A stretch of 64,000 nt of DNA, from assembly GCA_049433365.1 (NCBI GenBank), contig JBMTET010000005.1:1108-65107 (forward strand), read 5' to 3'. A model generated the notes under the pieces. It was not told the origin of the DNA, did no database searches, and saw only the letters and a program-made list of their open reading frames with translations. How positions within the stretch are numbered: the stretch's first letter is position 1; every line of letters begins with the position of its first letter. A program made the translations under genes and the position numbers. Of this stretch, positions 27,747-42,018 are shown piece after piece. Source of the DNA: Ilumatobacteraceae bacterium (GTDB lineage Bacteria > Actinomycetota > Acidimicrobiia > Acidimicrobiales > Ilumatobacteraceae).

Positions 27747-28379
27747 GTGCTCTTCGCCTCGGCTGCATCACCACGGTCGTTCGCCCGGGATGCATGGCTG
27801 TTGCCCGGGTGGGCAACCGAAAGCGCACACGCACTCATCACGGATCTTGAAAAAGTGGTTGCGTTGTCGCCGTGGCGCCGCGTCGTGACGCCGGGAGGCA
27901 AACCGATGTCGGTCGACATGACCAACTGCGGTGACTGCGGGTGGGTGTCGGACCGCCGCGGTTACCGCTACGAATCGACCGACCCGGTCACGGGTGTGCC
28001 ATGGCCGACGATGCCGGAATCGTTTCGTTCACTGGCGGCGGGCGCTGCTGCAGCAGTCGGTTTTGCACACTTCGACCCGGATGCGTGTCTCGTCAACCGG
28101 TACGTACCCGGAGCGAAGATGGCATTGCATCAGGACCGCGACGAGCGGGACATGACCCAACCGATCGTGTCGGTGTCGCTGGGTCTACCGATCACGTTCA
28201 TGTTCGGAGGGCCCGTGCGTTCCGACCCGACGACTCGCATCGCACTTGAGCACGGCGACGTCGTCGTGTGGGGTGCATCGTCACGACTGTTCTTTCACGG
28301 AGTCGGAACGCTGCGCGCCGGACTGCACCCGGTGACGGGTGCTGCGCGAGTCAACCTGACGTTTCGGCGAGCGCGATAG
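27747..28379 (+). CDS. alkB: Alpha-ketoglutarate-dependent DNA dioxygenase AlkB
   Basis: Collinear with E. coli AlkB: VTPGGKPMSVDMTNCG, ACLVNRYVPGAKMALHQDRDE, GDVVVWG..RLFFHGV, NLTFR. Confidence 0.9.
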   Translation: MLFASAASPRSFARDAWLLPGWATESAHALITDLEKVVALSPWRRVVTPGGKPMSVDMTNCGDCGWVSDRRGYRYESTDPVTGVPWPTMPESFRSLAAGAAAAVGFAHFDPDACLVNRYVPGAKMALHQDRDERDMTQPIVSVSLGLPITFMFGGPVRSDPTTRIALEHGDVVVWGASSRLFFHGVGTLRAGLHPVTGAARVNLTFRRAR

Positions 28380-29463
28380 TACGGCGCGACGAACGTCGCG
28401 CGTGCCATTCGAGCACGACGAGCATGCCAAAGGTCGGCATGAAGGGAATGTTTTGGCGGAACGAGTTGAAATCGGTGAGGGTGACCAAGCCGATGTAGAA
28501 ACCGAATGCGACGAGCACGGCAACGTGACGACGCTGCGGAGTGCGGAAAGCGACGATTACTCCGAGTGTGAACAACACGGGTATGACGATCGTTTCCGAC
28601 AGCGCAAGTCGAGAGACGAGCAGAGTCCACACGGAGAAATCGCTCGTCGTCTCCGTAACGGTGAGAAACTGCAGTCCGACGAAGTTCGAGGCGACCTGCA
28701 GCACAGGTGAGATTCCCCAGCGGTGTCCGTACGTCGCCGGTGCACCGTTGCCGAGCAACACTGCTCCCGCTCCGTACGACACGTACCCAACCAACACACC
28801 ACCGATGATCCGAACGGCTGATCCACCCACCCGAACGTGGGCACGCGGCACGCGCAACAGCCACGAGGTTGCGAGACCCACCGTGAGAGCGGCAGCAAGG
28901 TGCGGGCGGAGCGTTGCCAGTGCAATCAGTGACCACAGGCGTACGTCGAAGCGGTGTGACCACAAGACGACCGTGGCGAGGAGCATCATCGTCGTTTCGC
29001 GCAGCGCCAACGTGCTGTACAGAACCGCGATCGGTCCGAGTGCGGTGAGGTACGCAGTGACGAGCGTCGGTCGTACACCGGCAAGCGTCAGCCGGGCATT
29101 CACGAAGCGAACGAGCAGTAAAAGAGACACGATCGACACCGTTTTCAACGCCAAAGCGGGGTCGATGCCCGCGTAGTGAAGCATCGTCGCGGGCAGCGTG
29201 TACACCGGCTTGCCGAAAGACAGCCACCAGGAGGGTTGCAGCGGCAGTCCGATCTCGGTGATGGCAACGACGATGGATGCGTAGTAGCGCTGATCGTTGG
29301 AGTAGAAGATCAGTTGATTTTCGGCCCCGTAACGCTGGTACAGCACGGCGACGAGAATCGACCAGGAGATGACGTGCATTCGCGACAGCAGACCGTCACG
29401 CCAGAACAGCCCGAGGACCACAAACGAAATGAGTGCCAGCTGCAGGTAGTACATCGCGGACAT
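28351..29463 (-). CDS. Polytopic membrane protein, Wzy-like polymerase candidate
   Basis: About 10 hydrophobic segments. Last gene of the glycan operon. Its ATG overlaps the upstream stop by 1 nt, and its 3' end overlaps convergent alkB by 29 nt. Confidence 0.5.
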   Translation of the reverse strand: MSAMYYLQLALISFVVLGLFWRDGLLSRMHVISWSILVAVLYQRYGAENQLIFYSNDQRYYASIVVAITEIGLPLQPSWWLSFGKPVYTLPATMLHYAGIDPALALKTVSIVSLLLLVRFVNARLTLAGVRPTLVTAYLTALGPIAVLYSTLALRETTMMLLATVVLWSHRFDVRLWSLIALATLRPHLAAALTVGLATSWLLRVPRAHVRVGGSAVRIIGGVLVGYVSYGAGAVLLGNGAPATYGHRWGISPVLQVASNFVGLQFLTVTETTSDFSVWTLLVSRLALSETIVIPVLFTLGVIVAFRTPQRRHVAVLVAFGFYIGLVTLTDFNSFRQNIPFMPTFGMLVVLEWHARRSSRRTIALAETSG

Positions 29464-30257
29464 CACCGGCTGCGAATTGCCACGACGACGATGCGCCGAA
29501 CGTACTTGATGAGTGACCACAGTGCTGCCCACGCCCATGTGGGTGTCGAGATGAGCCCCGATCGCCTCATGAACCGAAGTGCATTGAGCTCCTTTCTTTC
29601 CATGCGGTGGAGTTGACTACTCAGGCCCGATTCGCCGTACGGAGCCTTGAACAAAGTGGCCAGCGGTGCATCGACGAGCAGCGCCGGGCCGTGACCGGCA
29701 ACAATCTCCATCCACAAGAGGTAATCCTCGGTCATGTCGCGGCTCGGGTTGAATCGCTGCGCGATGTCGCGTCGCAACATCACACTCGGAGTGGAAAACG
29801 CATTTTTCACGAGCAGTGAACGCAACGTCACATGTTTCACCGCAGGCCGCTCCGTGCCCAGTTCACCGAGCGAGCCCGACTCGTCGACTCGGTAGCGGTG
29901 ACCGCTCACTGCACACTGCGGTGCACCGGCCATGGCTGCGCCCTGTATCTCGAGCTTGCGTGGATGCCAGGCGTCGTCGGCGTCGAGGAAAGCGACAAAT
30001 GCATGCGATGCGCGATCCCAACCGACGTTGCGAGCCGTGCCGGGTCCGACATTTTCGCCCAGGCTGACAACCGACACGTTGAGCCGTGGATGGGCAACTG
30101 CGAGCGCGTGTGCAACTGAGACCGTGTCATCGGTGCTGCCGTCGTCGACGACGATGACCTCACGCGGCAGTTCGGTTTGGGCCGCAACGGACGCCACGGC
30201 CCGCTCCAAGGTGGCAGAAGAATTGAAACACGGGATGACGACCGAAACGTCACTCAC
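29463..30257 (-). CDS. Family 2 glycosyltransferase
   Basis: VSVVIPCFNSSATLERAVASV...[12 protein letters not shown]...FLDADD. GTG 30257 overlaps the upstream stop. Confidence 0.85.
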   Translation of the reverse strand: MSDVSVVIPCFNSSATLERAVASVAAQTELPREVIVVDDGSTDDTVSVAHALAVAHPRLNVSVVSLGENVGPGTARNVGWDRASHAFVAFLDADDAWHPRKLEIQGAAMAGAPQCAVSGHRYRVDESGSLGELGTERPAVKHVTLRSLLVKNAFSTPSVMLRRDIAQRFNPSRDMTEDYLLWMEIVAGHGPALLVDAPLATLFKAPYGESGLSSQLHRMERKELNALRFMRRSGLISTPTWAWAALWSLIKYVRRIVVVAIRSR

Positions 30258-31003
30258 AGAATTCGGTCCCACGCACCGAGCACCTTGCGCTGGGCAGTCG
30301 CCGGTGAGTCGAGTGCCCACATGTCGATGCGTGGTACCCGTAATTTCTGCTCGGACGAAACGAACGTGCCGGAGTCGCTGCACGCAGCCGCGACGTACCC
30401 GGCCGACGCAACGGCGGCATGAACCCTCTGGTCGTGGGCACCGTGCGGGTACGACATGGTGTCGACGGTACGTCCCAGTGCATCTTCGAGCGAGCGTCGC
30501 GCGATGGACAGCTCACCGCGCAGCTCGACGTCGTCGAGTCTCGTCAGCGGCACGTGGCGGTAGCCGTGGGCACCGATCCCGACCCCCGTCAGCGAACCGA
30601 GGTCGCGCAGCTGATCGATCGACATGTGGACGGAAGGGTCCGAAGCGAGGTGTTCGGCGCCGACGAACACGTGCACCGGGATGTTTTCGGCGACGAGCAG
30701 CGGTACGGCCATGTCGATGAAACTTCGGTATCCGTCGTCAAAAGTGACGGCGATCCCCGGCGTCGGAACACCGCCGAACGGCACGAACCGGGTGCCGCTG
30801 CGACCGGCAAGGTCAACGATGGCCCGCACGTGTTCGGTGAAGCGGCTCGGTGACATCGAGTACAGATTGGGATCCATGCCAGCAACACGTTCACCGATGG
30901 CGTGGTACATCAACACCCGGGTTCCCTCGGTGAGTTTCGGGCGCTCCACGACGGCGAGCAGGCGGGCGATGAGATCGCCGAGGGCGTACTTTCCGCGGTT
31001 CAT
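30254..31003 (-). CDS. Polysaccharide deacetylase (NodB/CE4-like)
   Basis: VTFDDGYRSF and GAHGYRHVPL motifs. Start ATG 31003. Confidence 0.8.
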   Translation of the reverse strand: MNRGKYALGDLIARLLAVVERPKLTEGTRVLMYHAIGERVAGMDPNLYSMSPSRFTEHVRAIVDLAGRSGTRFVPFGGVPTPGIAVTFDDGYRSFIDMAVPLLVAENIPVHVFVGAEHLASDPSVHMSIDQLRDLGSLTGVGIGAHGYRHVPLTRLDDVELRGELSIARRSLEDALGRTVDTMSYPHGAHDQRVHAAVASAGYVAAACSDSGTFVSSEQKLRVPRIDMWALDSPATAQRKVLGAWDRIL

Positions 31004-31028: not shown

Positions 31029-32018
31029 TCACGCGACGCGCGACGACACGATCCTACCGAGCAAGGAACGCAGAATCGCAGGCGACGCTGCGTCCCACTC
31101 GCCGAGGTACCGCACGTCGTGAGCGCCAACACCGTGTTTGAAGTCGTACACACCTTTGTTACGCACGGGATCGACGCCACCCATGTCGAACTTGCCGACG
31201 CCCCGACGAGCCAGCTCGTTCATGAGTTCCCACAAAGCAACGTGCGAGGAGTATCGACGACGTCCTTCGATGCTCGTCGCTGCAATGATGTCGAATGCGG
31301 CGCCCGAGCAGATGATCGCTCCGCGAACGGCATGGAGGTCACCGTTGCCATCGCGGCATTGCACGACGACAAGTCGGTCACCAAATTCCTGAATCAATGC
31401 GGTGATTCGTTCGGATTGTGAACGCCAGTCGACGACGTGGGCGCCCTTGAAGTTTTGCAGTTCGTCGTGCAAATCAGCAATTGATCGGGGATCGGGTGAC
31501 GTCCACACCGAGACGAGATTGTCGCGTGAGCGACCCCGTTTCAGGTTGCGTGACCAATTGGACGAGCATGCGGCGAGTCGAGTCGCCTCGTCGTCTTGCA
31601 ACGGCACGATCAGCGATTGCCCCGACGACAACGGTGCGTCGACGGTGCTCCAACCACCGGCACGCAGGGCCTGCTCGTCCGTATCCCTCGATGCATGCGT
31701 TGCGCCGAGGCGAACGTAGTGAATGACGGCGCGTCGTGCGGCACGAAGATTCGCAAGCACGTCGGCAGTCGTGCACGCCGACACGTCACCCAGCGGCGAA
31801 CCCGGCGCCCAGGCAACGACTGCTCCCGGCGCCGTCTGTTTCACGAGCAGCTGCACGGCACATCGTCCGGCCGGGTCGGTCAAGCGCAGTGGCGACCATC
31901 CGTCGTCAGCCTTGAATCGGGCCCATCCCGAGTAGGTATAGGGCGACGTTGCACCAAGTTCGTCAATGAGTCGATCCCACGAAGCATCGGACCCGCCGAA
32001 TGGAGCAAGTCGGCTCAC
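31029..32018 (-). CDS. FemAB-like / GNAT-fold aminoacyl- or acyl-transferase
   Basis: 330 aa with SSNWSRNLKRG and a C-terminal FDMGGVDP...KGVYDFKHGVG, resembling FemAB/BioF2-like acetyltransferase domains. GTG 32018 overlaps the upstream stop. Confidence 0.55.
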   Translation of the reverse strand: MSRLAPFGGSDASWDRLIDELGATSPYTYSGWARFKADDGWSPLRLTDPAGRCAVQLLVKQTAPGAVVAWAPGSPLGDVSACTTADVLANLRAARRAVIHYVRLGATHASRDTDEQALRAGGWSTVDAPLSSGQSLIVPLQDDEATRLAACSSNWSRNLKRGRSRDNLVSVWTSPDPRSIADLHDELQNFKGAHVVDWRSQSERITALIQEFGDRLVVVQCRDGNGDLHAVRGAIICSGAAFDIIAATSIEGRRRYSSHVALWELMNELARRGVGKFDMGGVDPVRNKGVYDFKHGVGAHDVRYLGEWDAASPAILRSLLGRIVSSRVA

Positions 32019-32983
32019 AGGAAGTTCACCAGGCGGACGCGGCGGTAGAAATCGGGAACGACGTGGAGGCTCGACGGAAGGTCCGGCCACGAGGTGACCT
32101 CGAGGCCGGTACCGCGCAGTGCGCGACGAACGGCGGGCAGTTGATCGTCCCAGGCGATGAGCGGATAACCCTGTGGTGACACACCCACGGGGAGTTCGGA
32201 AAAAATTGGCGTACACGGAGCGTCGGCAAGGCGACGGGCAATGTCGGCGTACAGCGTTCGGCGTCGTGCGACCTCGGCGTCGACGTCGACCCGGTCGATG
32301 ATTTCCCGGGAGGAACGATGCATGAGGTGACGCTCCGGCAACCGTCGCTCGAGCGACTCGTCGTTCGGTATCGCGTCCCGACCCGCCATGCGACGCATCA
32401 ACCGAATGACGAATCGCATGACGTTCATCAGTGGAAGCCGGGTGCCGCGCTCGATCGTTGCCACCCACCTACGCACGAGCATCGCCGCGCCAATGCTGCG
32501 CCGCTCGACGTCGTTCGGCCCCGGCAGCGTCAGCGCCGGATCAACGACCACATCCGCAGCAATGCTCAGGTACGCGCCGTCGACGCTGCGAATCGTCTTG
32601 CGCACGCTCGTCATGCCGAGTGACACCCGTTCACCGAGCAGTCGTCCCTCGGCGTCGCGGCTCAGCCAGCCGTGCGCATTGTCCTCGATGAGCACCGCCC
32701 CGGTGCGCGCTGCGTACTCGCGGAATGGTGCCAGGTTCTGGGGAAATCCGAAGTAGTTGACGGCGACAACGGCGCGTGCCGGTGGCCAGTTCGACGAATC
32801 GGTGATGGTGAGCGACTCGGGCACCGGGTACCACTCGGGTGCAGCGCCGAGCGCGCTCAGCGCGGCAAGAACGTCGCGACAGATGAACGACGGCAGTAGC
32901 ACCAGGTCACCGTGAGCAACCCCGGCAATGCGCAGCGCGTCCACCAACGCACCGCGCCCAAAGGCATACCAGTAGAGAGTCAT
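32015..32983 (-). CDS. DegT/DnrJ/EryC1-like PLP aminotransferase, short form
   Basis: GDLVLLPSFICRDV, AVVAVNYFGFPQNL, VLIEDNAHGW, and SVRK as the candidate PLP lysine. ATG 32983 overlaps the upstream stop. Confidence 0.6.
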   Translation of the reverse strand: MTLYWYAFGRGALVDALRIAGVAHGDLVLLPSFICRDVLAALSALGAAPEWYPVPESLTITDSSNWPPARAVVAVNYFGFPQNLAPFREYAARTGAVLIEDNAHGWLSRDAEGRLLGERVSLGMTSVRKTIRSVDGAYLSIAADVVVDPALTLPGPNDVERRSIGAAMLVRRWVATIERGTRLPLMNVMRFVIRLMRRMAGRDAIPNDESLERRLPERHLMHRSSREIIDRVDVDAEVARRRTLYADIARRLADAPCTPIFSELPVGVSPQGYPLIAWDDQLPAVRRALRGTGLEVTSWPDLPSSLHVVPDFYRRVRLVNFL

Positions 32984-33891
32984 CGGCGTGCCAATCGTGT
33001 CGGTGCAACGAGCAATGCAAGTCCGACCCAGGCACGCAACACGAGGGGTGACGTACGGATGCATTCGCCGTAGCGACGCAGCGCGTCTCTACGCTGCCCG
33101 CGTTCCTGATGCGCGCGTGCCGCACCGTATGCGACACGGGCGCGACGGTGGCGGTGCCGCAGCCGGATGCGCAACGATGCCGGGAGTTGGGCAACGTGAC
33201 TGTTCACGACGGCGAGTTCGGCCGATGAATTGCGTTCGATCGCCGAGCTCGCACTTGCATCGTGGCGGCGGAATTCGCCGAGAACGTCGGAAATGAATGC
33301 GTACTTTGCGCCGCGTCGTGCCAGTCGAAGCCACAGGTCGTAGTCCTCGGCGGTGACGAAGTCGGTGCGCTCGTCGAAGCCGTGCAATTCGGCGAGCAAT
33401 TCACGGCGCGCCACCACCGCCGACGTAGACACACAGTTGTGGCGGAAGAGCAGCCGTGCATAGCGGGCATTGTGCTCGGGGCCGTACGACACGTCGCGGA
33501 ACGTGCCATCGGCGGACGTCCAGCGTTCCCCGTGGCACACGACGTCGGCGCCGGAGTCGAGCACCGCGACGCATCGCGCGAGCTTGTTGGGGTACCACGA
33601 ATCGTCGGAGTCGAGAAACGCGACGTACGGCGAAGTGGCGAGAGACAGCCCGTGGTTGCGGGCCGCGGCGATGATCCCTTTGTTGGCGAAATCAACGATG
33701 TGCAGTCGTGGATCACCGAACGACGCAACCACCCCGTGAGTGTCGTCGGTCGAAAAATTGTTGACGATGATCGCGCGCCACGAGGTCATCGTTTGTGCGC
33801 GTACCGAACGCAGTGCATCGCCGAGGAAGTGGGCATGGTTGTACGTCGGAATGACGATGTCGACGGTGACAGGGGTGTCGGCGTGAGTCAC
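32980..33891 (-). CDS. Family 2 glycosyltransferase
   Basis: VDIVIPTYNHAHFLGDALRSV...FLDSDD. GTG 33891 overlaps the upstream stop. Confidence 0.85.
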   Translation of the reverse strand: MTHADTPVTVDIVIPTYNHAHFLGDALRSVRAQTMTSWRAIIVNNFSTDDTHGVVASFGDPRLHIVDFANKGIIAAARNHGLSLATSPYVAFLDSDDSWYPNKLARCVAVLDSGADVVCHGERWTSADGTFRDVSYGPEHNARYARLLFRHNCVSTSAVVARRELLAELHGFDERTDFVTAEDYDLWLRLARRGAKYAFISDVLGEFRRHDASASSAIERNSSAELAVVNSHVAQLPASLRIRLRHRHRRARVAYGAARAHQERGQRRDALRRYGECIRTSPLVLRAWVGLALLVAPTRLARR

Positions 33892-34802
33892 GGGCGACCG
33901 CCGAAGGAATCGATGGCGAGATCGAGGAGGTCGTCGATCGTCGTGTCGGTGTCGAGAGTGGGGTGAAATCCGCACTTGCGCATGAGCGAAACGTCGAGAC
34001 GGTAGGACTGGACCGGGGAATCGTCCGACTGGTTCGTCGACACGCGCATGTCGCGTCCGACCCGCGCCCGGGCTCGCGCGGCTACTTGTTCGGCCATGTC
34101 GCGAAGCGTCGTTGACGTGCCTGATCCGATGATGACGATCGGCGGCAGCACGTCGGCAGTACGTGCGAAGTGTGCGAGCGCGGCAGCGAGATCGGTGACC
34201 GGAACGAAGTCGCGCTCGTGCCGCCCGTGGCTGCGCAACTCGAGGTGTCCGTCGGTGACCGCCCGCTTGCACATGTCGGCGACGACCAAGCGCCACGTAT
34301 CGACTGCGGGGTCGATTGGGCGACCGAATCCGTTCGCCAGCCGCAGACACGAATGCTCCATCGTCGAGTTGCGCACTACGTCCTCCGCCGCGAGGTGCGT
34401 GCTCGCATACGGACCCGATTGTCCGGTGGGGCTCGCTTCGCTCACCGTGCCGCGTAGAGCGTCGCCGAACACCTGCACGGTGGATGCATAGATGAAGCGT
34501 CGGACACCGGCTATTTCCGCGGCGCGCACGAGCGCCGCAGTTCCTTCCACGTTCACCCTCGTTGCAAGGACGGGATCGGCATTCGATTCGGTGTCACTCA
34601 ATGCCGCGAGATGAACGACGATGTCGACACCGTCAACGAGAGTTCGCAGCGACGACTCGTCGAGCAGATCGCCCCGGCGCACCTTGCCCCGACCCTCCTC
34701 GCGATCGCGGCGACTGGTGAGGATGACGGTGTCGTGACGTGCAACCGCACTCGTGACGTGACCACCGAGGTGGCCGAATGCCCCGGTGACGAGGGTGGTC
34801 AT
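33888..34802 (-). CDS. NAD-dependent sugar epimerase/reductase (extended SDR)
   Basis: N-terminal LVTGAFGHLGGHV, then a YASTHLAAE (YxxxK-like region). Confidence 0.8.
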   Translation of the reverse strand: MTTLVTGAFGHLGGHVTSAVARHDTVILTSRRDREEGRGKVRRGDLLDESSLRTLVDGVDIVVHLAALSDTESNADPVLATRVNVEGTAALVRAAEIAGVRRFIYASTVQVFGDALRGTVSEASPTGQSGPYASTHLAAEDVVRNSTMEHSCLRLANGFGRPIDPAVDTWRLVVADMCKRAVTDGHLELRSHGRHERDFVPVTDLAAALAHFARTADVLPPIVIIGSGTSTTLRDMAEQVAARARARVGRDMRVSTNQSDDSPVQSYRLDVSLMRKCGFHPTLDTDTTIDDLLDLAIDSFGGRP

Positions 34803-35260: not shown

Positions 35261-35264
35261 GACG

Positions 35265-36353
35265 TCACCCCACCCCGCCCATGTACGCCTCGATGTCGCT
35301 CGTCGTGGCTTCGGGTGCAGGCGTGCCCGTGTGAACCCGGCGATACCACTCGACGCTGCGGTGAATCGTCGTTTCGAAGTCGAACCGCGGCGACCAGAGC
35401 AGCTCGCGGTGTGCCTTGTCGCAGTTCAATTGGAGCAGTGTGGCCTCGTGCATCGCCGATGTATCGGGTTCGATGCGTACCTGTCCCGATCCCCACGTAT
35501 CGCGGGCAAGCGTCGCCACTTCGTGCACGGTGTGGACGTTGTTTTCGTCGGGTCCGAAATTCCACGAATCTCCACCGCGCATCTTGCCCGCGAGAAGATT
35601 GCCGGCGAGCATCACGTATCCGGACAGCGGCTCGAGCACGTGCTGCCACGGACGCGTCGCTTCCGGACGACGCAACACGATTTCACCCGAGTCGATGAGC
35701 CCGCGCATGCAATCCGGAACGAGTCGATCGGGCGACCAGTCGCCGCCACCGACGACGTTGCCTGCTCTCGCGCTTGCCACACGGAGTCGGGTGTCGTCGT
35801 CGAAGTAGGAACGGCAATACGTGGCATAGGCAAGTTCGGCTGCGGCTTTCGACGCGCTGTACGGGTCGCGCCCACCGAGTTCGTCGTTCTCGTGGTAACC
35901 GCGTTGCCATTCCTTGTTGAGGTAACACTTGTCGGACGTGACGTAGACGAGCGCCGCGACGGATGTGACCGTGCGAACCGCTTCGAGAACGTTCAGCGAA
36001 CCGATGACGTTCGTCGTGAATGTTTCGACCGGGTCGGCGTACGAGCGGCGAACGAGTGCCTGGGCCGCGAGGTGGAAGACCACCTCGGGTTCGATGCGTC
36101 GAACGTGGCCGTGCAGTGCGGACGCATCGCGGATGTCGCAATCGACGTGCGTGATGCGTGAACGGAGGTCGAGCAAATCGAAGTGTGACGGTGAGGTGTG
36201 CGGTGGCAGGGCAAGACCGGTGACATCGGCTCCGGCGAGTTGCAGCCAGTGGGCGAGCCACGATCCCTTGAAACCGGTGTCACCGGTGATGAGCACGCGC
36301 CGACCGCGCAACGCGGCGAGCGATTCCGTCAGAGACACCGTCAGCGCTTCCAC
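35265..36353 (-). CDS. rfbG: CDP-glucose 4,6-dehydratase
   Basis: VLITGDTGFKGSWLAHWL plus a YSASKAAAE catalytic motif. The start is ambiguous (GTG 36353 or GTG 36338). Confidence 0.88.
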   Translation of the reverse strand: MEALTVSLTESLAALRGRRVLITGDTGFKGSWLAHWLQLAGADVTGLALPPHTSPSHFDLLDLRSRITHVDCDIRDASALHGHVRRIEPEVVFHLAAQALVRRSYADPVETFTTNVIGSLNVLEAVRTVTSVAALVYVTSDKCYLNKEWQRGYHENDELGGRDPYSASKAAAELAYATYCRSYFDDDTRLRVASARAGNVVGGGDWSPDRLVPDCMRGLIDSGEIVLRRPEATRPWQHVLEPLSGYVMLAGNLLAGKMRGGDSWNFGPDENNVHTVHEVATLARDTWGSGQVRIEPDTSAMHEATLLQLNCDKAHRELLWSPRFDFETTIHRSVEWYRRVHTGTPAPEATTSDIEAYMGGVG

Positions 36354-37129
36354 GGAGCCTCGTTGCGTCGATCGAGGTCGCCGAGCAGTTCCCAGTCGCG
36401 GTGGGTGTCCATGCACTGCCAAAAACCGTCGTGTTCGTACACGCTCAACTGTCCGTCACGAACCATTCCCTTCATCGGCTCGACTTCGAACACGAGATCC
36501 TCGCGGTCGGCGAGGTAATCGAACACCTTCGGGCGACATACGAAGTACCCGCCCGAGATGCGACCCTCGGACGTTTGTGGTTTTTCGTTGAACGACGTTG
36601 CGACACCGTCGGCACCGTAACGAACTTCGCCGAACCGACTCGGCGGGCGTACCGCGGTGAGGGTCATGGCACGATCGCGCCGTTCGTGCGAGGCGATGAG
36701 TTCGTCGATGTTCACGTCAGTAACGCCGTCACCGTACGTGAGCATGAACGACTCGCCGTCGACGTGTTTGCGCACCTTCGCAACCCGCCCACCGGTCATC
36801 GTTGCGGTTCCGGTTTCGGCGAGCGTCACCGTCCACGTGCGATCGGATCGTCCCGTGTCGTCAATGTCGACGTTGACGACGAGGTCATCGCCGTCCCGGC
36901 GCACGACGGAACCGCGATCGGTGAAATACGAGCGAATGACGTCGCCCTTGTAGCCGAGGCAGAGGATGAAGTCCCGATGCCCCCACGAGGCGTAGTACCG
37001 CATGATGTGCACGAGGATCGGCTCGCCACCGATGCGAATCATCGGCTTCGGAACGTCGTCGTCGACGCCGCGGATCCGCGTGCCGAGTCCTCCACACAAA
37101 ATGACGACTTTCAACGAAGACAACCCCAC
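36341..37129 (-). CDS. rfbF: Glucose-1-phosphate cytidylyltransferase
   Basis: VVILCGGLGTRIRG...PKPMIRIGGEPILVHIMRYY. GTG start at 37129. Confidence 0.9.
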   Translation of the reverse strand: MGLSSLKVVILCGGLGTRIRGVDDDVPKPMIRIGGEPILVHIMRYYASWGHRDFILCLGYKGDVIRSYFTDRGSVVRRDGDDLVVNVDIDDTGRSDRTWTVTLAETGTATMTGGRVAKVRKHVDGESFMLTYGDGVTDVNIDELIASHERRDRAMTLTAVRPPSRFGEVRYGADGVATSFNEKPQTSEGRISGGYFVCRPKVFDYLADREDLVFEVEPMKGMVRDGQLSVYEHDGFWQCMDTHRDWELLGDLDRRNEAPWKR

Positions 37130-37157: not shown

Positions 37158-38387
37158 TCACTGCGCGAGCACGGCGCCACGCTCGGCGAGCGCGGCACGA
37201 ATACGCACGTTGCCGGGATCGAACGTCATCACCCTCGGAACGATCGTTGCAGCGACCGCACTCCACGCATCGTCACTGCTCGCGCGTGCGAAGTCGACGA
37301 CGCGACGCACGTCGGCGTCGCCGTCGCTCGACGTCCAAAAGGCACCCTCCGCGGCGAGTGGCGAGGGAAAACCGAAGCGGAATTGCGCAACATCGTCATC
37401 GGTGCATCCGACGGATCGAAGGTGCGCACCACGCGCCGCAACGAATGCCACGCGTCGTCCGCGGGAGAGCATTTCGTAGCCGAGGGTGCTGTCAACGCAC
37501 GCGACGACCTCGGCCGACGAGGCGATCTCGTAGGACGCAGTCTCCGACCCTTTCGGCACGAACTCGAACGGCTTCCCCGCGCACCATTGTGCAAAGAATT
37601 CCCGTTCATGCCGAAATGATGCGGGGCGACGACCGATGACGGTGAGTCGCATGCCGCTCTCCGAGCACAGCGCAGCCAGAGCACGAGCGACTTGGCCGTC
37701 GACCGAATGAAAGACCGAAGCGGACACTGCGCGTTCACCGAGGTACGTCAACGTCGCCGAAGCGCGACCATCGGGGAAGATGTCGACGTGATCGAGGCCC
37801 GAGTACTGAGAGATGAAAACGATTCGCCCGGGTTCGCGAGCAACGGCGGGCAATGCGATCGAGTTGTTCTTGGCACTGCCGATTTCGGCCGTCGCGCACT
37901 CGATGTGCGAGCGGTACATCGCCGAGTGGTCGGGGCCGAAGGTGAGCACAAGATCGGCCGCCGGGCGGATGTCTGAAAAGTCGCGTCGCAGTGTCGTCCA
38001 CAGGTCGCCGGCGGGAACCGGTGCTCCCGTGCCGCGAATTCCGTTCTGGACGACGACCACCCGCGTCGACGGTGAGACGTGCCGAAACGTGTACAGGTGG
38101 GCATTCGAATCGATCGCCGACACGAGCAGGCGAGGTCGCGAAACCGCGACGAAGTTGCGGCAGTAGTCGTACCAACTGCGACCGCCGCGAAGGATCGTGC
38201 GCAGCAGAATCGGAACGTTGATCTCCTCGAAGTGGTTGTCGAACACGTCGTAGGTTCCGGGCCGAAGCAGCGCGGTGATCGGGTCGGATGCGTAGCGATC
38301 GAACACGAGCACACCGTCCGATGCGGGTCTCCGCCATGTCCAGCGGGCCGAGCGCAACGTGCGAATGACGCGTGCGAGGCGGGTCAC
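37158..38387 (-). CDS. Uncharacterised surface-carbohydrate biosynthesis protein (LA_1612-like layout); putative NulO transferase
   Basis: 409 aa with RIVFISQYSG ... LTVIGRRP ... VVACVDSTLGYEMLSRGRRVAFV. GTG 38387 overlaps the neuA stop. Function is inferred. Confidence 0.5.
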   Translation of the reverse strand: MTRLARVIRTLRSARWTWRRPASDGVLVFDRYASDPITALLRPGTYDVFDNHFEEINVPILLRTILRGGRSWYDYCRNFVAVSRPRLLVSAIDSNAHLYTFRHVSPSTRVVVVQNGIRGTGAPVPAGDLWTTLRRDFSDIRPAADLVLTFGPDHSAMYRSHIECATAEIGSAKNNSIALPAVAREPGRIVFISQYSGLDHVDIFPDGRASATLTYLGERAVSASVFHSVDGQVARALAALCSESGMRLTVIGRRPASFRHEREFFAQWCAGKPFEFVPKGSETASYEIASSAEVVACVDSTLGYEMLSRGRRVAFVAARGAHLRSVGCTDDDVAQFRFGFPSPLAAEGAFWTSSDGDADVRRVVDFARASSDDAWSAVAATIVPRVMTFDPGNVRIRAALAERGAVLAQ

Positions 38388-39088
38388 GAATCGAGCGTTC
38401 CCCGCAACAGGGCTTCGGCGATGCGCATGTCGAGTGGCGTGTCGACGTCGAGGGAGCTCTCGTGGTCCATGACGAAACAACGTGGTTGCGGTGCAACGAC
38501 GGAGTTGTATCGGCGAATGTCCCCGGCTCGGGAGACGTATATCGCACCGTTGGCCCGGAAGTAACCGGGCAACTTCTGGCGCGGGGCTTCGAGCGTGGCG
38601 AGATCGCGGATGGGTTCGACCGCCCCGTCGGCATCGATCGTGAACGACTTCAGCGGATGGTGATCGCACTCGCACACGGAAATGACGCTGTGCGATGCAC
38701 CGGTGGCGGCATTCGCCTGCCGGAACATTTTGATGGCTTGCGTGAGGTGTTCGTGCGTGCGCAGCGGAGACGTCGGTTGCAAAGTGACGACGATCGTGTC
38801 GTCGGCGGCACCGAGAACGTCGAGTGCGTGCAATACCGCATCGACCGTCGGCGACGAATCGGTGGCAAGGTGCGCGGGGCGATCAACGACGCCGACGTCA
38901 CGTCGCCGCGCATGATCGGCAATCGTCGGATGGTCGGTCGTGACGACGATTTCGGTGACGCCAGCCGCTGCGACCGCACAGTCAATGGCAAGATCGAGCA
39001 GCGTCGTTCCGGCAAGAGGCGCGACGTTCTTCAGCGGAACGCCCTTGGACCCACCGCGGGCCGGGATGACGGCGATGCAACGCGACAT
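38384..39088 (-). CDS. neuA: N-acylneuraminate (NulO) cytidylyltransferase
   Basis: IAVIPARGGSKGVPLKNV and LQPTSPLRT motifs. Confidence 0.85.
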   Translation of the reverse strand: MSRCIAVIPARGGSKGVPLKNVAPLAGTTLLDLAIDCAVAAAGVTEIVVTTDHPTIADHARRRDVGVVDRPAHLATDSSPTVDAVLHALDVLGAADDTIVVTLQPTSPLRTHEHLTQAIKMFRQANAATGASHSVISVCECDHHPLKSFTIDADGAVEPIRDLATLEAPRQKLPGYFRANGAIYVSRAGDIRRYNSVVAPQPRCFVMDHESSLDVDTPLDMRIAEALLRGTLDS

Positions 39089-39090
39089 GC

Positions 39091-40209
39091 CTACACCCGA
39101 CGGAAGATTTTTTGGTGGGAGATGGCCCACGTGCGGTCATCGTGCACGGCATCGAGGAAGCGTTCGGCACTGCGACCGTCACCGAACATCGTCGACGGCT
39201 GCCGTACGAGTGACCGGGCATGGGTGATACCGGAGGCGATCGCGGATGCATCGGCAGCGACATCGACGATGAGCGGGGAAGTGTTGCGACCGCGCTGCCG
39301 CGTGCCGACGTTGACGGCAGGCGTGCCGTAGACACCGGCCTCGCGCACGCCCGAACTCGAATTGCCGACGATGTAGCGCGCGTGCTTCAGCAGAGTTTGG
39401 AAGTACTCGAAGCGGATCGACGGGATGACGCGATACCGAGCCCTGCCGCGCAGGGACTCAATTCGCCGGAGAATTTCGGCACTTCCGGCATCGTTGTTGG
39501 GATACACGGCAACGAAGTTGTCGCCCGACGCATCGGTGGCGGCCAGCAACTCGCCGACTTGGCGACCCATGTCGTCGACCTCGGTCGTCACGGGATGGAA
39601 TGCGAGAAGTGCGTACTCGGCGAACGGGATTTCGTAATAACGAAGGACCTCGTCGAGCGGCGGAAGATCGGCGCCGAGCATCACGTCGACCTCGGGCGAC
39701 CCGATAACGAAGATGCTGCTCGGTTGCTCGCCGAGTTGGAGCAATACGTCGCGGGCGGCATCGTTGGCAACGAAGTGCACGTGGGAAAGCTTCGACACGG
39801 CGTGCCGCATGAGCTCGTCGACGGTTCCGGAGAATTCGCCGCCTTCGACGTGCCCGACGAGAACGTTGTTCAGCGCACCTACGATGGCGCCGGCCAAAGC
39901 TTCGACGCGATCGCCGTGCACGACGATCATGTCGGGCTTCCACTCGCGCACGATCGTGCCGAGGCCCTCGACCGTGCGGGCGAGAATCGTGTCCATCGGT
40001 GATCCGTCGGCGTCATTGCCGAACGTGCGCACGTTGGTGAAACCGGCCCGGGTGATTTCAATTTCGGTGCGCCCGTAGCGGTCGATGAGGTGCATCCCCG
40101 TGGCGACGATGAGATGCTTGACGTCGGGTGCCGTGGAGACGGCGCGCAGGAGCGGTTTGAGTTTGCCGAATTCCGCGCGAGTGGCGGTGAGAAACAGGAG
40201 GCGCTTCAC
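39091..40209 (-). CDS. neuC: UDP-N-acetylglucosamine 2-epimerase (hydrolysing type)
   Basis: TATRAEFGKLKPL, VHGDRVEALAGAI, HVEGGEFSGTVDE. GTG 40209 overlaps the neuB stop. Confidence 0.85.
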   Translation of the reverse strand: MKRLLFLTATRAEFGKLKPLLRAVSTAPDVKHLIVATGMHLIDRYGRTEIEITRAGFTNVRTFGNDADGSPMDTILARTVEGLGTIVREWKPDMIVVHGDRVEALAGAIVGALNNVLVGHVEGGEFSGTVDELMRHAVSKLSHVHFVANDAARDVLLQLGEQPSSIFVIGSPEVDVMLGADLPPLDEVLRYYEIPFAEYALLAFHPVTTEVDDMGRQVGELLAATDASGDNFVAVYPNNDAGSAEILRRIESLRGRARYRVIPSIRFEYFQTLLKHARYIVGNSSSGVREAGVYGTPAVNVGTRQRGRNTSPLIVDVAADASAIASGITHARSLVRQPSTMFGDGRSAERFLDAVHDDRTWAISHQKIFRRV

Positions 40210-41246
40210 TCGCCGATGTGATCCCGGCGCAGCTGCGTGTTGCGCGCAATCCGCGTGGTAGCGCGCTTGCCGAGCACGTGGGGGAAGTCGACGGCAAGCA
40301 ACTCGCCCGTACCCGGACGCTTCACCCACACGTTCGAGTAGTCGAAGCGCTCACCCGGTTCGATGTCGCGAATCGACACGACGGACGCATAAGCAAAATC
40401 GATGGTGGGCTGCTCCTCGGGCAGAATCGACTTGCTGCCACCACTCGCCGAATGCACGGCCCGGCTCGCCTGCACGAGTTCGGCAAGGTCGCCGGGATCC
40501 ATCGACACCTCGATGTCGGGCCCGGGCCAGGTGCGGTCGGACGTGAAATGACGCTCGAGGATCGACGCACCAAGGGCAACCGACGCGATGCACGTCCAGT
40601 TGGTGAGCGTGTGATCGCTCAATCCGAGAACCGCGTCGGAGAACGCGCGGCGCAGTTCGGCAATCGCCCCCAGTCGCACCTTGTCGTACGGGGTCGGGTA
40701 CATCGACGTGACGTGCAGGAGCGCATACGGCACGTTGTGGCGCCGGAAGATGTCGACGGACGGGGCAATCGACGCGACGTCGTTCATCCCGGTGCTCATG
40801 ATGACCGGCTTGCCGTACTTGGCGATGTGTTCCACGAGCGGATAGTTGTTGCACTCGCCGGAGCCGATCTTGTACGCGGCAACGTCCATCGACTCGAGTC
40901 GCTCGGCTGCGGCACGCGAAAAGGGCGTCGACAGAAAGATGAGCCCCTTGGACTCGACGTAATGCTTGACGGTGCGTTCCTCGTCTTCCGACAGTGCGCA
41001 GCGTTCCATGATGTCCCAAATCGATTCGCTGGCGTTGCCGGGAATGACGTCGTTGGGAATCATTTCGTCGTCGATGACGTGCGATTGGAACTTCACGCAC
41101 TCGCATCCCGCAGCCGCGGCGTCGTCAACCATGCGCAACGCCTTGGCGATGTCACCTTCGTGGTTGATGCCGATTTCGGCAATGACGAGGGGAGGATGGT
41201 CAGGGCCGACGAGACGACCGGAAATGTTCAATTCGGGCACGGACAT
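40206..41246 (-). CDS. neuB: N-acetylneuraminate/NulO synthase (PEP-dependent), with SAF domain
   Basis: PLVIAEIGINHEGD, KFQSH, LSDHT, and C-terminal ASVVSIRDIEPGERF...KRPGTG. ATG 41246 shares 1 nt with the upstream stop. Confidence 0.9.
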   Translation of the reverse strand: MSVPELNISGRLVGPDHPPLVIAEIGINHEGDIAKALRMVDDAAAAGCECVKFQSHVIDDEMIPNDVIPGNASESIWDIMERCALSEDEERTVKHYVESKGLIFLSTPFSRAAAERLESMDVAAYKIGSGECNNYPLVEHIAKYGKPVIMSTGMNDVASIAPSVDIFRRHNVPYALLHVTSMYPTPYDKVRLGAIAELRRAFSDAVLGLSDHTLTNWTCIASVALGASILERHFTSDRTWPGPDIEVSMDPGDLAELVQASRAVHSASGGSKSILPEEQPTIDFAYASVVSIRDIEPGERFDYSNVWVKRPGTGELLAVDFPHVLGKRATTRIARNTQLRRDHIGE

Positions 41247-41743
41247 CACCTTACGGAACCGCTTCGGGCGGCGATGAGAGCGTCGGCGAACTCGCGAATC
41301 GCGCCTCGCCCACCGGGCTTCGTGAGCACCATGTCGGCAACTGCGATTGCGGTCGGATGCGAATCGGCCGGCACCACCGCAAGCCCGGCGTGTCGCAGGC
41401 ACTCGACGTCGTTGACGTCGTTTCCCATGTAGGCGCACTCGCCGGCATCGACCCCTTTCTTCGTCAGCCACTGCCGGAAAATCGGCAGTTTGTCGTCGAT
41501 GCCCTGGTGCACTTCGAGCGACAACTTGCGCGCCCGGGCCGACACGACGGGATTCGGTTCCTTCGAAATGATGACGAGATGAATCCCGGCGGAGCGGAGA
41601 AACTCGATTGCCATGCCGTCACTGCGGTCGCAGAACACGAACTCTTCACCGGACTGCGAGACGAGCACGCGGTTGTCGGTGAACACGCCGTCAAAGTCGA
41701 AGACAACGGCACGGATTCCGGCAAGCGAAGCCGCGGACGTCAT
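41246..41743 (-). CDS. HAD-IIIA phosphatase of the KdsC (Kdo-8-P / Kdn-9-P phosphatase) family
   Basis: VVFDFDGVFTDN (DxD nucleophile motif), GMAIEFLRSAGI, YMGNDVNDVECL. Confidence 0.8.
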   Translation of the reverse strand: MTSAASLAGIRAVVFDFDGVFTDNRVLVSQSGEEFVFCDRSDGMAIEFLRSAGIHLVIISKEPNPVVSARARKLSLEVHQGIDDKLPIFRQWLTKKGVDAGECAYMGNDVNDVECLRHAGLAVVPADSHPTAIAVADMVLTKPGGRGAIREFADALIAARSGSVR

Positions 41744-42018
41744 CGCAGCAACCCCGATACCGCGCCTGTGAGAGTGGCGAGGGCCACGACGATTCCCAGC
41801 CCCACAGCGGTTCCGCCGATCGCGCACATTCCGAGCAACGTACCCAAGGCGCGAACACGGTTGGGGCGTTCGGCGGTGATTCGACCCTGCGCTACGGCAA
41901 CGGGCAGCGGACGAGTCCCGATGAGCGAGGATGCCCGTCGTGACGACGTACCACGCAGGCGATACGAAAAGACGAGTGCTCCGAGGGTGAGCACCGTGAC
42001 GATGAGGGCGCGGGCCAT
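41740..42018 (-). CDS. Small membrane protein, first ORF of the glycan operon
   Basis: 92 aa with two hydrophobic segments. Its stop overlaps the phosphatase ATG (ATGA). Coding status rests mainly on this coupling. Confidence 0.4.
   Translation of the reverse strand: MARALIVTVLTLGALVFSYRLRGTSSRRASSLIGTRPLPVAVAQGRITAERPNRVRALGTLLGMCAIGGTAVGLGIVVALATLTGAVSGLLR

Follow-up and report, generated by a model that had tools for sequence, protein, structure and literature searches.

A compact 16-gene glycan array in a freshwater Ilumatobacteraceae bacterium, probably organised as three co-directional modules with nested transcripts

The neuBCA genes of the Escherichia coli K1 and Neisseria meningitidis capsules are among the closest described counterparts of the array analysed here, which occupies positions 28351–42018 of the minus strand in a window (the whole stretch of DNA analysed) of 64,000 nucleotides. 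Both have a NeuC-type epimerase (in the array scoring above the TIGR03568 cut-off), a SAF-domain NeuB and a CMP-synthetase, all encoded in a single block with one orientation. However, the NeuB of the array falls below the equivalog cut-off, so its nonulosonic acid (NulO) may not be Neu5Ac. Furthermore, the array lacks a polysialyltransferase or GT52/GT80-type sialyltransferase, adds a KdsC-type phosphatase and an LA_1612-family GT-B protein, and belongs to a monoderm actinobacterium. A protein of the LA_1612 family is also embedded among neuA, neuB and neuC in Leptospira interrogans (LA_1605–LA_1615). That protein, LA_1612, founded the family TIGR04441; it sits within the NulO cluster of Leptospira, whose phyletic pattern it shares, and its annotation is hypothetical (PMC4758666, Table 3). 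Nevertheless, the sequences are distantly related (28–34% identity to other family members), the role is putative in both organisms, and Leptospira, a diderm, has its cluster in the rfb region. In the rfb loci of Salmonella and Yersinia, as in the array, a glucose-1-phosphate cytidylyltransferase (RfbF/DdhA) is followed, with an overlap, by a CDP-glucose 4,6-dehydratase (RfbG/DdhB), but the array has a small RmlC-like cupin and an SDR in place of the RfbH/RfbI 3-deoxygenation pair; a CDP-6-deoxyhexose is therefore predicted, rather than a 3,6-dideoxyhexose.

Teichulosonic acids are reportedly Kdn- or NulO-containing wall polymers of actinomycetes. The likeness is at the level of the host, which is likewise a Gram-positive actinobacterium and carries genes for ulosonic acids, LCP ligases and primers of the WecA type; no polymer is known to have been characterised in Acidimicrobiia. 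The ABC-transporter-dependent O-polysaccharides of E. coli O9a and Klebsiella O12, the latter with a terminal Kdo cap, involve a Wzt with a C-terminal glycan-binding domain. Similarly, our genome encodes Wzm and a Wzt_C-bearing Wzt beside a WecA-like primer, with no match to the Wzx or Wzz families. However, this transporter lies on another contig, in a glycan locus of its own, and any tie to the array is putative. By analogy, a terminal ulosonic acid could be the cap recognised by the Wzt_C domain.

The array is an ordinary kind of surface-sugar cluster. With a probability of about 0.6, we read it from its sequence as a locus for surface or cell-wall glycan biosynthesis composed of three co-directional modules, A (g1–g6), B (g7–g13) and C (g14–g16), which would be expressed as nested transcripts, with priming, export and attachment of the putative polymer encoded elsewhere (Table 1).

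Table 1. Genes and candidate promoters of the array (window positions).
Feature	Position	Strand	Assignment	Evidence
P1	42063..42068	-	Candidate promoter	-10-like TACGCT, 45 nt upstream of g1 ATG
g1	41740..42018	-	Small membrane protein (92 aa, two TM segments) that opens module A	Open ORF
g2	41246..41743	-	KdsC-family HAD phosphatase	TIGR01670, 110.7 bits (above cut-off 106.95)
g3	40206..41246	-	NeuB-type nonulosonic acid synthase + SAF domain	PF03102, 243.9 bits; PF08666
g4	39091..40209	-	NeuC-type hydrolysing UDP-GlcNAc 2-epimerase	TIGR03568, 369.2 bits (cut-off 235.9)
g5	38384..39088	-	CMP-nonulosonate synthetase (NeuA/PseF-like cytidylyltransferase)	PF02348, 75.9 bits
g6	37158..38387	-	LA_1612-family (TIGR04441/PF27908) GT-B-fold protein, candidate ulosonic-acid transferase	TIGR04441, 223.6 bits (cut-off 150)
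P2	37144..37149	-	Candidate internal promoter	-10 TAGGCT in g6/rfbF gap
g7	36341..37129	-	RfbF-type glucose-1-phosphate cytidylyltransferase	PF00483; TIGR02623, 271.1 bits (under cut-off 300.25)
g8	35265..36353	-	RfbG-type CDP-glucose 4,6-dehydratase	TIGR02622, 449.5 bits (cut-off 278.45)
g9	34799..35260	-	Small RmlC-like cupin (sugar epimerase/isomerase)	PF00908, 28.1 bits (cut-off 27)
g10	33888..34802	-	Extended SDR	PF01370, 120 bits, alignment from residue 1–4
g11	32980..33891	-	GT2 glycosyltransferase (a)	PF00535, 102 bits
g12	32015..32983	-	Divergent, N-terminally short DegT-like PLP enzyme	PF01041, 30.9 bits, residues 38–153 only
g13	31029..32018	-	FemAB/GNAT-like (Acetyltransf_6) protein	PF13480, 26.6 bits; PF02388, 24.8 bits; both borderline
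P3	31051..31056	-	Candidate internal promoter	-10 TAGGAT in g13 3' end, 48 nt before CE4 start
g14	30254..31003	-	CE4 polysaccharide deacetylase, no signal peptide	PF01522, 64.9 bits
g15	29463..30257	-	GT2 glycosyltransferase (b)	PF00535, 109 bits, alignment from residue 2–4
g16	28351..29463	-	Orphan multi-pass membrane protein	No family match

An earlier note had described a 16-gene minus-strand run with near-continuous overlaps, and its account of the junctions held throughout. All 16 ORFs are open with the starts chosen there, only 59 of 13,668 nt are non-coding, and each of the eight 4-nt overlaps is an exact ATGA or GTGA at its stated place. The 1-nt overlaps at 41246 and 29463 are real, but both read GTGATG, and a GTG 3 nt upstream (41249 for g3) makes a 4-nt overlap equally possible. 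The four short gaps measure 2 nt (neuC/neuA), 28 nt (g6/rfbF), 4 nt (rfbG/cupin) and 25 nt (g13/CE4, the CE4 ATG at 31003 matching the MNRGKY start of its homologues). The g6/rfbF gap widens to 43 nt with a TTG at 37114, possibly the true start of g7, with which the MKVVIL start of its homologues aligns. For rfbF/rfbG, left as either a 13-nt overlap or a 2-nt gap, the overlap is the option conserved across the genus; it recurs in six relatives and was also picked on L067/L068 by an independent gene caller, which gave the same junction pattern. The TIGR03568 alignment begins at residue 2 of g4, thereby fixing its GTGA-overlap start.

The host is a small, streamlined freshwater member of the Ilumatobacteraceae (Acidimicrobiia), represented by a 1.6-Mb draft MAG (93% complete). 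With a crude whole-genome gene finder as background (1,515 genes, 1,021 same-strand junctions), tight spacing (an overlap, or a gap of ≤30 nt) is found at 72% of the same-strand junctions and a 4-nt overlap is possible at 28%. The 16 genes of the array form the longest tight run in the genome, followed by runs of 13, 12 and 11. Four-nucleotide overlaps, at 8–10 of 15 junctions, are only mildly enriched (binomial p = 0.03–0.002 against all junctions, 0.19–0.03 against tight junctions only). The junction pattern, which is real and conserved across relatives, is thus the extreme of a genome-wide compaction and no special device.

TAGNNT-type -10 motifs were found by de novo hexamer enrichment to be 10–19 times more frequent upstream of genes; although TAGNNT is a short motif, its sense-strand density in this genome is 2.19/kb upstream of genes versus 0.046/kb inside them (47-fold). 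The 13.7-kb array has only two such sites on its sense strand, 14–29 nt before rfbF (P2) and 48 nt before CE4 (P3), the starts with the two largest gaps. By chance, both would land in the 60 nt preceding the four gapped starts with a probability of about 3e-4. The P2 hexamer occurs 34 times in the genome and is 17-fold enriched upstream of genes, and in each genus member examined, the start of rfbF is preceded at 17–31 nt by TAGGCT, TAGACT or TAGCAT. The P3 hexamer occurs only nine times genome-wide, and L001, L002, L067 and L041 retain CGGTAGGCT or CGGTAGGAT ahead of CE4. Both sites are kept in relatives in which the surrounding intergenic sequence no longer aligns. P1 is the weakest of the three candidates: its hexamer is 10-fold enriched upstream of genes and its region, CGGTACGCT, is conserved in L001, L002 and L067, but it falls within the opening codons of Lon-PDZ, the divergent neighbour, and Lon coding constraint could also explain this conservation.

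The earlier note had favoured one 16-gene operon as the blueprint for a complex repeat unit; as a rival to our reading, this would mean a polycistronic transcript from a single promoter upstream of g1, with translational coupling throughout. The scarcity of non-coding sequence agrees with this, as do the divergent Lon-PDZ gene upstream and the convergent AlkB-like gene downstream, which bound the unit; moreover, neither terminator-like nor sigma-70 consensus sequences were enriched in the array, and a hairpin after g16 was not significant. However, a single operon is unlikely, given that the two largest gaps coincide with the conserved TAGNNT sites, that a gap at g6/g7 and at g13/g14 persists in almost all genus relatives examined, and that module A is replaced or lost independently of the rest. 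Because of the two conserved sites, three nested transcription units, with predicted starts, are likelier than one. Modules B and C would each have their own promoter, giving a nested set of transcripts with no obligatory 13.7-kb mRNA from modules that abut without terminators. Within modules, translation is probably coupled by termination–reinitiation, given the 4-, 1- and 13-nt overlaps and the near-absence of Shine-Dalgarno motifs, a GAGG-like motif being present only at g8.

The core g7–g16 is 40–62% identical across the genus, whereas module A varies. Module A is unchanged in close relatives, in which an ORF 44–47% identical to g1 occupies the same position; it is replaced in G123 and G075 (HAD, short NeuB, two oxidoreductases and NeuA-like), cut down in G121 (HAD and LA_1612) and gone except for LA_1612 in G117. 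The layout recurs beside Lon-PDZ in G015, from another genus. Since the NulO module is replaceable or absent where the CDP-sugar core is kept, they need not contribute to a single repeat unit, and the proposed merger of a NulO with a CDP-6-deoxyhexose branch is not upheld. This variability could mean that two unrelated products are made side by side, module A decorating another acceptor (for example a protein, or a polymer made by a different locus) with CMP-NulO and LA_1612, and modules B and C making a separate 6-deoxyhexose glycan. In G015, G068 and G010, LA_1612 and rfbF lie apart, with 3.7–4.4 kb of other genes in between, and the Leptospira NulO cluster has been linked to surface lipoprotein modification (PMC4758666). 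However, throughout the genus LA_1612 remains the immediate upstream neighbour of rfbF, with or without NulO genes, and a gap of 28–49 nt is all that separates them, which leaves two unrelated products a rather doubtful reading, though a less remote one than the single operon.

In our preferred reading, module A would supply an activated nine-carbon sugar acid, NeuC, NeuB and NeuA presumably converting UDP-GlcNAc to ManNAc, a Neu5Ac-type NulO and CMP-NulO in that order. Profile matches bear out these three identities, but the exact sugars are not fixed, since NeuB (TIGR03569, 355.9 bits, cut-off 399.65) and RfbF score under the NCBIfam equivalog cut-offs. The PseF model matches g5 with 104 bits, also under its cut-off. 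The hydrophobic segments of g1 comprise residues 1–19 and 61–79, and an EamA match is below the Pfam cut-off (24.2 versus 28.2 bits).

The NulO branch had also been said to include the phosphatase g2, which was not supported: g2 is the only KdsC-family gene in the genome, and across relatives it tracks kdsA, not neuB, although 3 of 14 genomes, all MAGs, are discordant. Most likely, g2 also, or mainly, completes a separate Kdo pathway with a kdsB-kdsD-kdsA operon 25 kb away, which has no KdsC gene and for which g2 is the sole candidate. A true NulO-pathway enzyme, acting on the Neu5Ac-9-P/Kdn-9-P route as in Bacteroides and animals, would fit a Kdn-9-P phosphatase model match at 2e-28, the HAD directly before the short NeuB-like synthase in G123 and G075, and the base shared by g2 and neuB. 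Nevertheless, such a role is improbable: NeuC yields unphosphorylated ManNAc and a kinase is absent; G068 and G010 have neuB, neuC and neuA without HAD or kdsA; G121 retains HAD with no NeuB in the locus; and in G015 the HAD and NulO genes are on opposite sides of three adjacent housekeeping genes.

The last gene of module A, g6, had been called an orphan transferase. It belongs to the LA_1612 family, PF27908 being precomputed on its homologues, and has a confident GT-B fold (AF2 model, pLDDT 96.7, with generic GT-B matches including polysialyltransferase 5wcn and TarL/TagF). Family members adjoin NulO genes in most contexts seen, including the Leptospira cluster, and g6 may transfer an ulosonic acid from a presumed activated donor. 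Against this, g6 retains no His-Pro motif of the kinds found in known sialyl- and Kdo-transferases, and no His is invariant across 111 sequences. It is kept in G121 and G117, although their locus has no NulO genes, and could therefore use a CDP-sugar, CMP-Kdo or the product of a second NeuB cluster.

Profile and PDB matches confirmed rfbF, rfbG, the cupin, the SDR, both GT2s and CE4. Module B would convert Glc-1-P to CDP-Glc and CDP-4-keto-6-deoxy-Glc, followed by cupin epimerisation (g9 matches 3ejk, "dTDP sugar isomerase", E = 1.5e-34) and reduction by the SDR, probably a 4-ketoreductase, to a CDP-6-deoxyhexose. To this are added a GT2 (g11, with 50–57% identity in every genus member), a divergent PLP enzyme and an optional, putative acyl or aminoacyl transferase. 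The described aminotransferase/FemAB-like pair thus persists as a weak DegT-like and FemAB/GNAT-like pair. Aligned to TlmJ (5uid), g12 keeps the Asp of ED(N)A and has K129 on the PLP lysine. No PDB sequence matched g13, which is present in G123, G121, G117 and G015 but absent from the closest relatives L001, L002 and L067 and from G075.

Module C would combine a cytoplasmic CE4 deacetylase, a second GT2 and g16, with outward-facing conserved charged residues. The 3' end of g16 overlaps the AlkB-like gene by 29 nt. No Pfam or NCBIfam family matched g16, and its 319 homologues are all named "hypothetical". Helix order and the positive-inside rule place the invariant polar residues D57, R155/E156, R186/H188, R285/E290 and R336 on the predicted outer face. 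The earlier note had called g16 Wzy-like; a polymerase role in a Wzx/Wzy-dependent pathway would suit a multi-pass membrane protein ending a glycan cluster with Arg, His, Asp and Glu so placed, and Wzy proteins are notoriously diverse. However, neither sequence nor fold resembles any Wzy, WaaL or GT-C entry (AF2 model, pLDDT 88.7, best PDB Foldseek E = 0.9; no Pfam match in 40 homologues; no resemblance to the Wzy_C protein that this genome encodes), the 93%-complete genome has no Wzx-family (PF01943) gene, and an ABC-transporter route is available. We therefore regard a Wzy function as the least probable of the alternatives considered here.

The 16 array products gave no match to priming transferase, Wzx or Wzz families, in agreement with the earlier note, and the genome search it called for found WecA-like PF00953 enzymes on contigs C20 and C23, which could perform priming. 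Export may proceed through the C23 Wzm/Wzt transporter, although this exporter may serve only its own locus, and wall attachment through two LCP enzymes encoded elsewhere in the genome. A second NeuB cluster is present besides the array.

All 16 minus-strand reading frames of the glycan array proved open with the starts assigned in the earlier note, which had proposed one operon for a complex repeat unit. Eight 4-nt overlaps (ATGA or GTGA) were found exactly where they had been placed, and four junctions are short gaps of 2, 28, 4 and 25 nt. The two 1-nt overlaps also exist, but each reads GTGATG, so a 4-nt alternative is available. For the rfbF/rfbG junction, described as either a 13-nt overlap or a 2-nt gap, the overlap was picked by an independent gene caller in two relatives (loci L067 and L068), in which identical overlaps, this one included, were chosen. 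A start-by-homology comparison of eight relatives gave the same junction pattern, and for NeuC, the SDR and the two GT2s the domain alignments start a few residues at most from the overlap-defined start codons. Homologues suggest that the true start of rfbF is TTG at 37114 (MKVVIL) rather than GTG at 37129. Shine-Dalgarno motifs are nearly absent at the array starts, with the exception of rfbG (GAGG), and 59 of the 13,668 bases are non-coding.

The source genome is a 1.6-Mb draft in 83 contigs (93% complete, about 63% GC; window at C5:1108-65107). Its nearest public relatives are two MAGs, one of Ilumatobacteraceae from Lake Mendota and one that carries the label 'Bifidobacterium' and evidently belongs to the same lineage; the host is therefore taken as a streamlined freshwater member of Acidimicrobiia. 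A crude codon-bias gene finder, run on the whole genome, yielded 1,515 genes at 93% coding density and recovered all 16 array genes. Among 1,021 same-strand neighbour pairs, 72% have tight junctions (overlap or gap of at most 30 nt) and a 4-nt overlap is possible at 28%. The array is the longest tight run in the genome, followed by runs of 13, 12 and 11 genes, and its 4-nt overlaps (8-10 of 15 junctions) are only mildly above background (p = 0.03-0.19, depending on the baseline). The near-gapless array is thus genuine, but it stands at the extreme end of a compaction seen throughout the genome; the observation in the earlier note was confirmed and its interpretation only partly supported.

Features of the array, its surroundings and related loci (window coordinates unless a contig is named; g1 is the first gene, at the 42018 end)
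Feature	Position	Strand	Assignment	Evidence or remark
Array, g1-g16	28351-42018	-	glycan genes	module A, g1-g6 (NulO side); B, g7-g13 (CDP-6-deoxyhexose side); C, g14-g16
g1		-	small two-TM protein	EamA match below cut-off
g2		-	HAD phosphatase, KdsC / YrbI Kdo-8-P phosphatase subfamily	TIGR01670 110.7 bits vs 106.95 cut-off
g3		-	NeuB with SAF	PF03102 243.9 bits, PF08666 33 bits; TIGR03569 355.9 vs 399.65 equivalog cut-off
g4		-	NeuC hydrolysing UDP-GlcNAc 2-epimerase	TIGR03568 369.2 vs 235.9, full length; residues 2-353 = profile 1-363
g5		-	CMP-NulO synthetase	PF02348
g6		-	LA_1612 family (TIGR04441 / PF27908 Lept_O_ant_chp1)	TIGR04441 223.6 vs 150, full length
g7		-	RfbF glucose-1-phosphate cytidylyltransferase	TIGR02623 271.1, slightly below 300.25 cut-off; 13-nt overlap with bona fide RfbG
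g8		-	RfbG CDP-glucose 4,6-dehydratase	TIGR02622 449.5 vs 278.45, above equivalog cut-off
g9		-	RmlC-like cupin	PDB 3ejk, E = 1.5e-34
g10		-	extended SDR	PF01370
g11, g15		-	GT2 glycosyltransferases	PF00535
g12		-	N-terminally short DegT-like protein	PF01041 30.9 bits, cut-off 19.8; profile 50-169 of 360 only
g13		-	FemAB/Acetyltransf_6, borderline	PF13480 26.6 (cut-off 22), PF02388 24.8 (cut-off 24), both partial
g14		-	CE4 deacetylase, no signal peptide	PF01522
g16		-	multi-pass membrane protein	no family match
TAGGCT	37149-37144	-	candidate -10	in g6/rfbF gap
TAGGAT	31056-31051	-	candidate -10	48 nt before CE4 start
TACGCT	45 nt upstream of g1		weaker candidate -10	within first Lon-PDZ codons
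Upstream flank			divergent Lon-PDZ, DivIVA, UPF0182	housekeeping
Downstream flank			convergent AlkB-like 2OG oxygenase, ADH, PAC2	housekeeping
AlkB-like 2OG-Fe(II) oxygenase	27747-28379	+		29-nt overlap with g16 3' end at 28351-28379
g1 ATG/Lon-PDZ ATG gap	42019-42041			23 nt
kdsB, kdsD, kdsA	13946-16532			no kdsC among them
Other ulosonic-acid loci	1763-2521, 54321-57612		second kdsB paralogue; second NeuB and KdsB-like cytidylyltransferase; LIC12162-family protein	TIGR04331 below cut-off
Other orphan transferase candidates	56035-57612, 17199-18449, 129-1784
Spurious long ORFs (examples)	42059-43582	-
	43210-44307	+
GC dip	18001-20000			0.557 in 2-kb bin vs ~0.63 elsewhere
PF00953 gene 1	C34		MraY
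PF00953 gene 2	C20		WecA-like	beside atp operon
PF00953 gene 3	C23		second WecA-like gene	in second glycan locus
Second glycan locus	C23:4009-16106
LCP ligase, one of two	C5:68184-68660			~3 kb past window end
Alternative module A (L040)	G123:C5 315-5430

A sigma-70 consensus scan of the array gave 0 promoters against 2.4 expected, and an intrinsic-terminator scan gave 9 terminator-like sites against 12.5 expected; both are uninformative for a GC-rich actinobacterium. The hairpin directly after the g16 stop was not significant (z = -1.29). Since the consensus scan was empty, a promoter motif was learned de novo from hexamer enrichment in the 542 regions upstream of genes having at least 50 nt before them. 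The top hexamers (TAGTGT, TAGCAT, TAGGCT, TAGCGT, TAGCCT and TACGCT; 10- to 19-fold) define a genomic -10 motif, TAGNNT or TACNNT, and the density of TAGNNT is 2.19 per kb in upstream regions versus 0.046 per kb inside genes on the sense strand. Its upstream sites peak immediately before genes, with 42 of 152 ending 0-9 nt before the predicted start, which suggests that leaderless mRNAs are widespread in this genome.

The sense strand of the array has only two TAGNNT sites, one before rfbF and one before the CE4 gene, with a common CTCGG prefix that fits a weak upstream consensus (c-g-G). In every genus member examined, one of TAGGCT, TAGACT and TAGCAT is found 17-31 nt ahead of the rfbF start; since the g6 stop precedes this motif in all of them but one, it is not a conserved stop codon. 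Four relatives (L001, L002, L067 and L041) have CGGTAGGCT or CGGTAGGAT as the counterpart of the CE4 motif, and nearly all relatives retain a gap at the g6/rfbF junction (28-49 nt) and at the g13/CE4 junction (25-125 nt). This evidence points to two internal -10 motifs, and together with the persistently open junctions it leads us to read the array as, likely, three nested units (A, B and C) with no separating terminators.

The proposed units differ in their conservation. Close relatives carry the same array beside Lon-PDZ, at 60-94% protein identity and without the FemAB-like g13; more distant genus members keep g6-g16 at 30-62% identity, and module A is variable. Four of these genomes (G123, G075, G120 and G113) lack NeuC and have the HAD phosphatase together with a NeuB-like synthase whose identity is only about 35%. 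Module A of G123 resembles another kind of ulosonic acid route, possibly of phospho type: it encodes a KdsC-like HAD, a NeuB-like synthase cut short before the SAF domain, a Gfo/Idh/MocA-like oxidoreductase, a NeuA-like cytidylyltransferase, an SDR oxidoreductase and the LA_1612 protein. Module A is reduced to HAD and LA_1612 in G121 and to LA_1612 in G117; the window's second NeuB cluster is kept in both genomes. In other genera of the family (G015, G068 and G010), neuB-neuC-neuA-LA_1612 is followed by 3.7-4.4 kb of other genes and then by the rfbF core. The comparisons thus reveal a stable CDP-sugar core and, at the same position of the chromosome, a swappable sugar-acid (NulO) module. A recent horizontal acquisition of the complete array was rejected, as GC content hardly varies along it (0.61-0.645) and synteny at the locus extends throughout the family. 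An insertion of g13 in this genome was likewise rejected: the gene occupies the same place in more distant relatives (G123, G121, G117 and G015), and is therefore taken as ancestral and lost in the nearest ones. No PDB sequence match was obtained for g13. The DegT-like g12 keeps the PLP lysine and an aspartate in the alignment with TlmJ, and its first ~60 residues are missing.

On its profile matches g3 is a NeuB family member, the substrate of which is not fixed by its score with TIGR03569, the Neu5Ac-synthase model. The phosphatase had been assigned to the NulO branch, and it does lie beside neuB; but it is the sole KdsC-family gene in the genome, and its distribution follows that of kdsA. 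In 14 genomes, the two co-occur in seven, are both absent from four and disagree in three; G068 and G010 have neuB, neuC and neuA and lack both, G121 retains the phosphatase without a local NeuB, and in G015 it lies beyond UPF0182, away from the NulO genes. No phosphatase is required for the NeuC/NeuB route. Most economically, g2 is read as the enzyme that completes the Kdo pathway; it may be bifunctional, and may be a legacy of an ancestral phospho-type module. Several ulosonic-acid loci besides the array are present in the window of this monoderm genome.

The earlier note had remarked on the lack of a priming transferase and a flippase in the array, and the rest of the genome (a 93%-complete draft) likewise contains no PF02397 primer and no PF01943 flippase; three PF00953 genes were found instead. 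The second WecA-like gene belongs to a second glycan locus that also encodes a Wzy_C ligase-like membrane protein, a Wzt ATPase with a Wzt_C glycan-binding domain, an ABC-2 permease, a double GT2, an epimerase, a GT4 and a UDP-sugar dehydrogenase, and the genome has two LCP (LytR-CpsA-Psr) ligases. On these findings, the product most likely takes an ABC-transporter route and is finally attached to the wall by LCP enzymes. An appealing hypothesis is that a terminal ulosonic acid would signal both export and termination.

The g6 protein had no match in the Pfam copy searched; its homologues carry PF27908. The family comprises about 1,000 representative clusters (E<=1e-3), with invariant residues D93, Q114, G170, N175, G348, W351 and N393, and no characterised member; no functional study of LA_1612/TIGR04441, or of NulO in Ilumatobacteraceae, was found in the literature. 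The AlphaFold model (pLDDT 96.7, pTM 0.93) has a two-Rossmann GT-B fold, and a fold search of the PDB returned only generic GT-B enzymes (TM 0.33-0.50), including a polysialyltransferase (5wcn), TarL/TagF and UDP-GlcNAc 2-epimerases; a PDB profile search gave nothing. Known GT-B sialyl- and Kdo-transferases have a catalytic histidine, usually in an HP motif. No invariant or near-invariant histidine was present among 111 LA_1612-family sequences, and with generic fold similarity only (TM 0.41-0.50), g6 could not be placed in GT38, GT52, GT80 or GT107 (KpsC/KpsS). The founding member, LA_1612, is a 'hypothetical protein' within the Leptospira NulO cluster (PMC4758666). Metagenomic members often, though not always, adjoin NeuB/epimerase/CMP-synthetase or legionaminic-type genes, and homologues are patchy (7 of 101 genomes of the family and 2 of 401 of the phylum). 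Within the genus g6 shows 28-38% identity, diverging as fast as module A, versus 57-62% for rfbF and rfbG. This divergence, the NulO-gene neighbours and the GT-B model support the inference that g6 is a transferase whose donor changes with the sugar-acid module. Comparison of g6 by hhalign with the three other orphan transferase candidates in the window gave no convincing kinship (best probability 31%, over 54 columns).

The last gene, g16, had been called Wzy-like, a label that was not borne out. Its 319 homologues, mostly from freshwater metagenomes, are all named hypothetical. The model is confident (pLDDT 88.7), and it had no neighbour in a fold search of the PDB (best E = 0.9). Pfam searches with g16 and 39 homologues (E<=5) gave nothing consistent, and hhalign comparisons with the genome's own Wzy_C protein (probability 0.3%) and with a DUF6311 membrane protein revealed no similarity. 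The protein was thus not assignable to the Wzy polymerases, Wzy_C ligases or GT-C enzymes (PF04932, PF14296, PF14897; WaaL and GT-C folds). Helix order and the positive-inside rule predict that the invariant D57, R155/E156, R186/H188, R285/E290 and R336 lie on the outer face, where they would suit an enzyme acting on a lipid-linked glycan.

A joint reading, to which we give roughly one chance in four, is that LA_1612 represents a new GT-B family of ulosonic-acid transferases; that g6 adds a sialic-acid-like residue as a cap to a 6-deoxyhexose wall polymer; that the ABC exporter recognises this cap through its Wzt_C domain, in place of a chain-length regulator; and that g16 is a new-fold outer-face ligase or polymerase of a teichulosonic-acid-like system in abundant freshwater Acidimicrobiia. 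The array itself is a polysaccharide gene cluster with overlap-coupled genes, a known sort of system; start/stop overlaps and NulO and 6-deoxyhexose clusters are routine, and no general concept is changed. The likely internal promoters, the assignment of KdsC to the Kdo pathway, the swappable NulO module and the two uncharacterised proteins worth testing, the GT-B enzyme g6 and the membrane protein g16, are useful refinements. The array illustrates the way in which a streamlined planktonic actinobacterium arranges its largest investment in biosynthesis, in modules that are near-gapless and overlap-coupled within, and that short conserved candidate -10 boxes may allow to be expressed separately. 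A stable core with a swappable module fits the view that surface glycans are what chiefly varies in such lineages, under pressure from phages and grazers.

An Rfam scan of the window returned two tRNAs only, with no match inside the array. Long ORFs antisense to or out of frame with real genes, which are typical of 63% GC DNA, were judged spurious because of their wrong GC1/GC2 pattern and are not for annotation. One 2-kb bin of the window shows a dip in GC. The overlap between g16 and the convergent AlkB-like gene was also called in L067 and L068. At the other end, g1 and Lon-PDZ are separated by the short divergent gap, and in more distant genus members (5' ends of L039-L044) their start codons overlap as the palindrome CATG; the first g1 codons of these members contain a nucleotide-conserved stretch, GAGGTTACG, the reverse complement of which, TAACCT, looks like a Lon-PDZ -10 box.
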